DNA of 57,628 nt from assembly GCA_964554765.1 (NCBI GenBank), contig CAZKPS010000002.1:63808-121435 (forward strand), read 5' to 3'. Shown one piece after another: positions 36,520-36,928 of the stretch (position 1 is the first letter of the stretch; each line of letters opens with the position of its first letter). Below the pieces are notes generated by a model that saw only the letters and a program-made list of their open reading frames with translations, ran no database searches and was not told the DNA's origin. The stretch is from an uncultured Candidatus Saccharibacteria bacterium (GTDB taxonomy: Bacteria > Patescibacteriota > Minisyncoccia > Phycocordibacterales > CAIRYW01). A program made the position numbers and the translations under genes.

Positions 36520-36928
36520 AAAGATAGCGCCAGCCAGCCAGCCAGCCAGCCAGCCAGCCAGCCAGCCAGGAAAGATTTTACCCGTTTTAAATAAGGTCAA
36601 GGGTGCTTATCTCACGTGGTACAAATTTTATCAAGACATCCCCAAAACCCACAGGCACTCGCTCGGTCAGCGTATTGATACTCTTTTTGTTGAAGTGATT
36701 GAGGCAATTTCTGCTGCGAGCTTTTTATCACGAGAAGAAAAACAACCGTATGTAAGGCTTGCCATCAAAAAGTCAGATACGCTCCGTGTACTTTTAATGA
36801 TCTTGTGGGAGACGAAATCTTTAGACGATAAAAAATATATTACTCTTTCTGTAATGCTCGATGAGGCAGGAAAAATGCTCGGCGGATGGAATGGTCAACT
36901 TACAAAACAAAACTCTCCCAAGAAATAG
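36479..36928 (+). CDS. avd: DGR accessory variability determinant (Avd, four-helix bundle); start uncertain
   Basis: LTWYKFYQDIPKTHRHSLGQRIDTLFVEVIEAI..LAIKKSDTLRVLLMILWE..LDEAGKMLGGW. I see no in-frame ATG/GTG/TTG between the CCAG tract and the Avd core, so the candidate starts (36431, 36479, TTG 36512) all lie upstream of the tract. Confidence 0.75.
   Translation: MILLYVCWKIILGIKIAPASQPASQPASQPGKILPVLNKVKGAYLTWYKFYQDIPKTHRHSLGQRIDTLFVEVIEAISAASFLSREEKQPYVRLAIKKSDTLRVLLMILWETKSLDDKKYITLSVMLDEAGKMLGGWNGQLTKQNSPKK
36530..36569. repeat. Perfect tetranucleotide repeat (CCAG)10 between or inside the divergent RT and avd reading frames
   Basis: ccagccagccagccagccagccagccagccagccagccag, counted directly. 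It encodes PASQPASQPASQP on the plus strand and WLAGWLAGWLAG on the minus strand. Confidence 0.95.

Follow-up and report, generated by a model that had tools for sequence, protein, structure and literature searches.

Repeats that occupy promoter spacers are known from the porA (poly-G) and opc (poly-C) genes of Neisseria meningitidis and from the fim genes (poly-C) of Bordetella pertussis, and in Haemophilus influenzae a (TA)n tract lies in the overlapping divergent promoters of hifA and hifB. Diversity-generating retroelements (DGRs) are very common in Patescibacteria. To our knowledge, the regulation of DGRs in nature is largely unknown, and for Patescibacteria we know of nothing that has been reported on it. 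A repeat situated in a coding region is found in the modA gene of Neisseria, for which phase variation through all three frames by an (AGCC)n tract in the 5' coding region has been shown experimentally (PMC2667262). For the Bordetella phage model, bRT-Avd together with the DGR RNA is reported to be 'necessary and sufficient' for cDNA synthesis (PMC6182149).

Here we describe a DGR from a stretch of DNA of 57,628 nt (hereafter the window, meaning the whole stretch that was analysed), in which a perfect tetranucleotide repeat, (CCAG)10, stands in the 5' leader-coding part of avd. From the sequence comparisons given below we consider it likely that this tract is a contingency (phase-variation) switch on the translation of Avd and therefore on retrohoming. 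Repeat-driven contingency switching is well known, but in a DGR accessory gene, conserved across a large clade of Patescibacteria and set within overlapping divergent promoters, it appears to be undescribed. The initial annotation of this DNA had supposed as much, and a search of the literature for DGR or Avd in connection with repeat tracts, slippage, phase variation and Patescibacteria found no description of it; the main DGR surveys, in so far as their text is open to a search by term, have no mention of such a tract.

Results

The DGR and its genomic setting

The window is part of a cellular chromosome, as it carries genes for ArgRS, SHMT, PilM and a histidine kinase, and its homologues assign it to the Patescibacteria. 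The features of the DGR are collected in Table 1. The reverse transcriptase (RT) is of the DGR type, combining the RVT_1 domain with the [LIV]GxxxSQ motif (LGNLTSQ at residue 192) and the YxDD motif (YADD at residue 224). The Avd core matches the Pfam family bAvd with an E-value of 5.6e-11 (43.3 bits, the gathering cut-off being 40), which identifies it as a DGR accessory variability determinant (Avd); it has 2087 homologues, of which those from Patescibacteria are named 'four helix bundle protein'. The template repeat (TR) and the variable repeat (VR) are 80% identical, every one of their mismatches falls on an adenine of the TR, and the VR encodes the C-terminus of its ORF. The genes avd and RT point away from each other, with overlapping 5' ends.

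Table 1. Positions of the DGR, the repeat tract and the candidate signals of avd in the window
Feature	Position	Strand	Remark
DGR reverse transcriptase, 345 aa	35482-36519	-	start ATG 36519; RVT_1 3e-25
Extended -10 box TGATATTAT	36480-36488	+	7 nt 5' of ATG 36496
Conserved avd start ATG	36496-36498	+	antisense to RT codon 8 (His, CAT)
32-codon ORF from the conserved ATG at 10 units, MLENNFGHKDSASQPASQPASQPARKDFTRFK then stop	36496-36594	+	
TTG alternative start	36512-36514	+	joins the Avd core at unit number = 1 mod 3
TAG closing the third frame just 5' of the tract	36525-36527	+	unit number = 2 mod 3
(CCAG)10 simple-sequence repeat	36530-36569	+ (avd sense)	TRF
Avd core, four-helix bundle, ILPVLNKVKGAYL... 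to stop codon	36575-36928	+	Pfam bAvd PF22296
Terminator-like hairpin + U-run	36913-36934	-	consensus scan only
Template repeat (TR)	36947-37047	-	20/20 VR mismatches at TR adenines
Variable repeat (VR)	37386-37486	-	3' end of target ORF 37382-38002

The terminator-like hairpin comes directly after the TR and overlaps the stop codon of avd. Upstream of the TR, at 37111-37138 on the minus strand, there is a promoter-like TTGGTA-16-TATGAT. The TR RNA may be a separate short transcript of about 200 nt, and a separate TR transcript would leave the RT without an obvious promoter in the clade of the window; a sigma-70 scan from the TR terminator to the RT start found no RT promoter.

The DGR island has a GC content of 0.44-0.50 against 0.37-0.41 around it (profile over 34000-42000), and it is flanked (30377-34322 and 40915-42501) by the res and mod genes of a type III R-M system, of which mod is without a repeat, and by a large serine recombinase. 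A further recombinase of the serine type is located at 54117-55628.

Anatomy of the repeat tract

The tract was called by TRF at 36529-36569 with a period of 4, 10.2 copies and 100% matches. No other perfect repeat with a period of 2-9 and a length of at least 16 nt occurs in the 57.6-kb window, and (CCAG)10 recurred 0 times in dinucleotide-preserving shuffles. It lies between the RT ATG at 36519 (minus strand) and the start of the Avd core at 36575 (plus strand), and on the other strand the start codon of the RT is 10 nt away, the intervening sequence being CGCTATCTTT. The perfect 40-nt repeat that the initial annotation had placed between the RT start and the Avd core was thus confirmed by TRF and Pfam. 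The locus has a perfect non-triplet repeat between a conserved upstream ATG, at 36496, and the Avd core. In the frame of TTG 36512 and ATG 36479 the tract at 10 units reads PASQ.... No RNA structure of the tract was found on the avd strand. On the RT strand, (CUGG)10 folds into an 18-bp hairpin located 10 nt before the RT ATG, the shuffle z-score of which is uninformative for a repeat.

A longer RT isoform, said to begin upstream of the tract at an ATG at 36600 of the minus strand, was rejected. The codon at this position is TTG and is not conserved, RT homologues have the N-terminus M-x-K/R-I, the heptamer repeats of relatives (see below) carry TGA on the RT strand, and an allele of 11 units breaks the frame.

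Length polymorphism of the CCAG tract

An ENA contig of 25.8 kb (L001), the coverage of which is only 1.9x, aligns to positions 31983-42515 of the window over 10,537 bp with 0 mismatches and a single 4-nt gap, which corresponds to 11 units as against 10 in the window; the VRs of the two are identical. In a sister lineage, L168 and L169 (6 units) and L170 and L171 (3 units) agree over 1,968 nt with 0 mismatches and differ only by a 12-nt gap, and each of these alleles is represented by two independent assemblies. Repeat number differs between near-identical genomes with identical flanks, in keeping with the earlier idea of a slippage-prone tract. Relatives at 81-88% nucleotide identity, detected by a left-flank scan, have 9, 11 and 17 units, and protein clusters revealed 7-unit alleles as well as one decayed, interrupted tract in which the frame is kept. 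Altogether seven unit numbers, 3, 6, 7, 9, 10, 11 and 17, were seen in the CCAG clade. An exact flank scan of viral contigs gave 0 matches, and when the RT and the 77-aa avd were looked up by exact match, one other contig only was retrieved.

The contig L005 stops within its CCAG tract (11674-11682), which represents an assembly break at the repeat. In L006 (2700-2800; L007 has the same sequence) the RT is deleted beyond its first 8 codons, while avd, TR and the target gene are retained and the tract has 17 CCAG units, the longest seen.

Repeats at the same site in relatives

By using the Avd profile, 80 genome loci were fetched, with 59-95% Avd identity and nearly all from Patescibacteria MAGs. 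In about 75 of the 78 assessable loci a repeat ends 1-8 nt 5' of the Avd core codon 'ILPVL'. Poly-C of 7-14 (mode 10) occupies the site in 62 loci, and the C is always on the avd strand. The other units at the site are (CCAG)n, (CCAA)7.8, (ACGA)9, (CAATCAG)11 and (GA)6.5; two loci from viral collections have (GA)19.5 and C8, respectively, and peptide periods in called proteins imply the heptamers (CCATCAG)n and (CCATCAA)n. The initial annotation had proposed looking for the tract in orthologous DGRs, and a non-triplet repeat is present at the site almost without exception. The junctions hold 62 C/G runs of at least 8, and another 5 are spread over about 490 kb of other sequence, an enrichment of about 700-fold at this site. 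Sequencing error hardly affects counts of tetra- and heptanucleotide units, and poly-C lengths in assemblies are error-prone, especially in long-read ones. One contig, L054, ends in a run of 48 G (5797-5844), which is probably an artefact.

The periods of these repeats are 1, 2, 4 and 7, and periods of 3, 6 and 9 were never seen. On the avd strand no repeat unit contains a stop codon in any frame, and on the RT strand the heptamer repeats contain TGA.

The relatives L038 and L070, 99.1% identical, differ almost only in VR-like clusters, the sole other differences being in poly-C lengths (11 vs 9 at the site). Two more poly-C tracts are found near the DGR of these contigs (1886-1895 and 46-55 in L038; 1898-1906 and 58-67 in L070). 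Read on the RT strand, they consist of G10, a TATAAT or -10-like box, 6-7 nt and an ATG, and one of these modules, 10 vs 9 in length, precedes the gene for a 292-aa protein with a signal peptide. This arrangement suggests a general poly-G/-10/leaderless promoter module in these genomes that would be phase-variable.

Start codon and promoter of avd

The initial annotation had allowed avd starts only 5' of the tract. Read in the avd frame, the stretch from the tract to helix 1 has no ATG, GTG or TTG, and such a codon first occurs at core residue 41 (GTG 36695). No canonical or Shine-Dalgarno-led start was found 3' of the tract. As for the starts that had been named, TTG 36512 and ATG 36479 are indeed in frame, and the codon at 36431 is TTG and not ATG. 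The ATG at 36496 had been missed, and it is this codon, out of frame at 10 units, that conservation favours.

The codon for His8 of the RT is CAT in 54 of 54 loci, whereas the ratio of CAT to CAC elsewhere in those RTs is 671:442 (p about 1e-12, relatedness ignored). Since this codon is always CAT, an ATG is fixed on the avd strand, in the window at 36496. The frame of this conserved ATG is open as far as the repeat in 52 of 52 loci, and the same is true of the two remaining frames in 8 and 5 loci, respectively. Before the ATG, from T(-16) to T(-8), the position frequencies over 53 loci give the avd-strand consensus TGnTATnnT, which is embedded in RT codons 11-14. Synonymous sites of the RT support this box: Ile13 is encoded by ATC in 41 of 52 loci, against a background of 26% (p 5e-15), and codon 12 is NAT in 37 loci and NAC in 1. 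An extended -10 box at a distance of 7 nt from the ATG points to a leaderless or near-leaderless avd mRNA, beginning at ATG 36496, a deduction that draws on conservation overlapping the RT coding sequence.

Relative to this predicted transcription start, ATG 36479 and TTG 36431 fall upstream, and TTG 36512 is the only downstream alternative that is in frame at 10 units. In two 7-unit relatives (P0125 and P0127) gene callers start at the equivalent of TTG 36512, giving 'MGIKIAPASQ'.

The predicted transcription starts of avd and RT (36496-36519; 52 related loci) diverge and overlap by about 24 nt, and each gene's -10 box sits within the transcribed 5' end of the other. RNA polymerase may be able to bind at only one of these promoters at a time.

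Frame consequences of the unit number

The reading frames were modelled for alleles of different length. When the unit number is 0 mod 3, ATG 36496 is joined to the core, as MLENNFGHKDSA(SQPA)n...GKILPVL. When it is 1 mod 3, as in the window, the core is joined only to TTG 36512 and to codons that precede the predicted transcription start. The 2 mod 3 alleles L001, L004 and L006 are closed by TAG 36525 and have no start, and for L001, with its 11 units, the gene caller gave only a truncated avd of 77 aa. Across the modelled range of 6-14 units, changes of unit number shift avd into and out of frame. Since ATG 36496 needs a multiple of three units, the 10-unit allele of the window is out of the canonical ON state.

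Of 73 loci with a repeat, 32 have some upstream start codon in frame with the core, which is no enrichment over the 33.7 expected at random; where the conserved ATG is present, in 52 loci, the three phases counted from it are represented 16:18:18. The enrichment test does not discriminate between models; random phases alone would also fit a tract whose length is irrelevant. In an outgroup of 12 loci without a repeat (L089-L100; 30-43% Avd identity), in which the divergent arrangement of RT and avd is kept, an in-frame ATG lies 12-45 nt 5' of the Avd core in 12 of 12, and two Patescibacteria loci in which substitutions have erased the tract, L030 and L059, are in frame as well, making 14 of 14. 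The difference from the repeat-bearing loci is significant by Fisher's test with the outgroup alone (p 2e-4) and with all repeat-less loci (p 5e-5). We concluded that the repeat randomises the phase of avd. A randomised phase combined with an intact Avd core ORF is the signature that reversible switching would be expected to leave.

The proteins P0039-P0112 include avd forms of 103-109 aa that start with 'MWYKFYQD' and are begun at an internal Leu or Met codon. These short calls are probably out-of-frame alleles that gene finders have mis-called. In public records, many avd genes of the clade would then be wrongly listed as truncated or 'frameshifted', and this would account for the calls of 77-109 aa.

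Discussion

A proposed switch on Avd translation

On the reading that we favour, the extended -10 promoter at 36480-36488 would drive transcription of avd and translation would start from ATG 36496, and the ribosome would have to traverse (CCAG)n before reaching the four-helix core of Avd at 36575. Slipped-strand mispairing would add or remove 4-nt units and rotate the core through three phases. At a unit number of 0 mod 3 the core would be fused to the conserved ATG and avd would be fully ON. At 1 mod 3 it would be served by TTG 36512 only, a state that may be weakly ON and in which the window is found. At 2 mod 3 the frame would be closed by TAG 36525 and avd would be OFF, as predicted for the 11-unit sister contig. 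In this way mutagenic retrohoming of the target gene (VR 37386-37486) would be possible or not according to the phase of the tract. Since bRT-Avd is needed for cDNA synthesis in the model DGR, an out-of-frame avd should silence retrohoming; the requirement comes from the Bordetella phage DGR and not from this clade of Patescibacteria. In the initial annotation the tract had been suggested to switch both avd and a long form of the RT. Its frameshift switch of avd gains support from the length polymorphism, the conserved repeat site and the upstream start, and the long RT form has to be given up.

Alternative explanations

The main alternative, though we think it unlikely, is that the repeat mainly tunes expression of the RT rather than translation of Avd, the effects on the avd frame being secondary. 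According to this explanation, the poly-G of poly-C relatives would be the -35/-10 spacer of a promoter for a leaderless RT mRNA, and in the window the (CUGG)10 hairpin just before the RT ATG would form part of the RT 5' UTR, its size setting the RT output. The geometry in the poly-C relatives is indeed suggestive. On the RT strand the hexamer abutting the poly-G is T(82%) A(69%) N N A(61%) T(77%), with the RT ATG at a modal distance of 7 nt. A -35-like cTGgCA, complementary to the Avd codons TTG CCA G, is found at n+8 bp, so that the spacer measures 17-18 bp when the tract is 9-10 long, close to the observed mode of 9-11. The similar module in front of the secreted-protein gene of L038 and L070 varies in length too. 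In the poly-C lineages the tract therefore probably tunes RT transcription as well, in the manner of porA and opc, and as it exactly fills the RT promoter spacer, avd may be neither the only target nor the selected one.

The same geometry fails for the tracts of 12-78 bp, namely those of CCAG, CCAA, ACGA, GA and the heptamers. The window is among them: its tract is 40 bp long and there is no -10 box at a leaderless or otherwise usable distance before the RT ATG, so that the spacer model was rejected for the window. Nor is there an RNA structure common to the different repeat units. Tuning of the RT also leaves unexplained why triplet periods are absent and the units are stop-free on the avd strand, why an ATG and a promoter of avd are conserved 5' of the tract, and why all 14 repeat-less loci are in frame. 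The persistence of non-triplet repeats of 12-78 bp where a spacer role is impossible speaks for a frame switch on avd being sufficient to maintain the repeat. RT tuning is, moreover, compatible with a switch on avd, as one poly-C tract would affect both genes.

A wider hypothesis follows these lines, and we put it forward only tentatively, as something possible but on balance doubtful: that across the Patescibacteria one hypermutable repeat co-controls both halves of the DGR, within an overlapping divergent promoter region of at most 60 bp. If so, the repeat would set the frame of the leaderless avd mRNA and, in poly-C lineages, also the -35/-10 spacing of the leaderless RT promoter. Targeted hypermutation would in that case be heritable and at the same time switched stochastically, with a switch of mutation rate set atop a mutagenesis device. 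Surface proteins encoded beside these DGRs may, in addition, be made phase-variable by a poly-G/-10/ATG module of the same kind.

It is very improbable, in our judgement, that the tract belongs to an untranslated leader, with Avd starting 3' of it at a non-canonical or near-cognate codon, the unit number mattering little and the repeat being tolerated rather than selected. Initiation independent of the tract could take place at a TTG that is core codon 2 in about 40% of the relatives (some 29 of 73 loci), or at ATT 36575, just 5' of which the window has AGGAAAG; and the phases among the assemblies are random. Against this explanation, the clade of the window has TTA at core codon 2, and the linkers between repeat and core, 1-8 nt long and varied in sequence, hold no conserved Shine-Dalgarno-like element. 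The conserved ATG, the promoter box and the uniquely open frame all run into the repeat, and the relatives that lack a repeat always use the adjacent upstream ATG. A repeat without function, furthermore, would not be expected to stay at one site over 59-95% Avd identity while its units change.

That the tract lengths differ through errors of assembly or sequencing, or as neutral mutational debris without regulatory meaning, can hardly be credited in spite of the 1.9x coverage of L001, the contig that ends inside the tract and the unreliable homopolymer lengths of some assemblies, for tetra- and heptanucleotide counts withstand sequencing error, the 6- and 3-unit alleles are each replicated in independent assemblies, the CCAG clade has as many as seven unit numbers, and C/G runs are concentrated so strongly at this one site.

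Significance

If the proposed switch on Avd translation operates, only part of a population would diversify the target protein at a time, and the cost of self-mutagenesis would be limited while the capacity for diversification is retained. The locus also suggests that divergent promoters in these organisms overlap and are leaderless, and the tract would offer a natural on/off handle for engineered DGR mutagenesis.

Comparison with known systems

The locus resembles the modA phasevarions of Neisseria and Haemophilus in several respects. The AGCC unit of modA is CCAG read in another register; the start codon or codons are separated by the tract from the body of the gene; the three phases correspond to a main distal ATG, a second start, and no start with a stop; and close strains differ in unit number. 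In modA the stop comes after the repeats, whereas here TAG 36525 comes before the tract. While modA encodes a methyltransferase, the gene that would be switched here encodes an accessory protein of an RT mutagenesis system, and its start region overlaps a divergent RT gene. The hosts of modA are host-adapted pathogens, whereas this DNA is from an uncultivated Patescibacterium, in which a switch is proposed from sequence.

With porA, opc, fim and hif, the likeness is found in the poly-C relatives. There, a C/G run of 7-14 lies on the RT strand directly 5' of a -10 box and gives a spacer of about 17 bp, as in promoter-spacer repeats, and the tract is located within a very short divergent intergenic region, as at hif. 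The window itself is unlike porA, opc and fim, because its 40-bp tetranucleotide tract cannot be a -35/-10 spacer and falls inside the reading frame of a divergent gene.

As far as the published accounts of the DGR of Bordetella phage BPP-1 (mtd-avd-TR-brt; PMC6182149, PMC5758913) describe it, the two elements share an RT with the DGR motifs, an Avd that is a four-helix bundle, adenine-specific differences between TR and VR, and a VR at the 3' end of the target gene. Compared with the BPP-1 element of those accounts, the one described here has avd inverted and divergent from the RT, with overlapping 5' ends, and carries a hypermutable repeat in the leader of avd.
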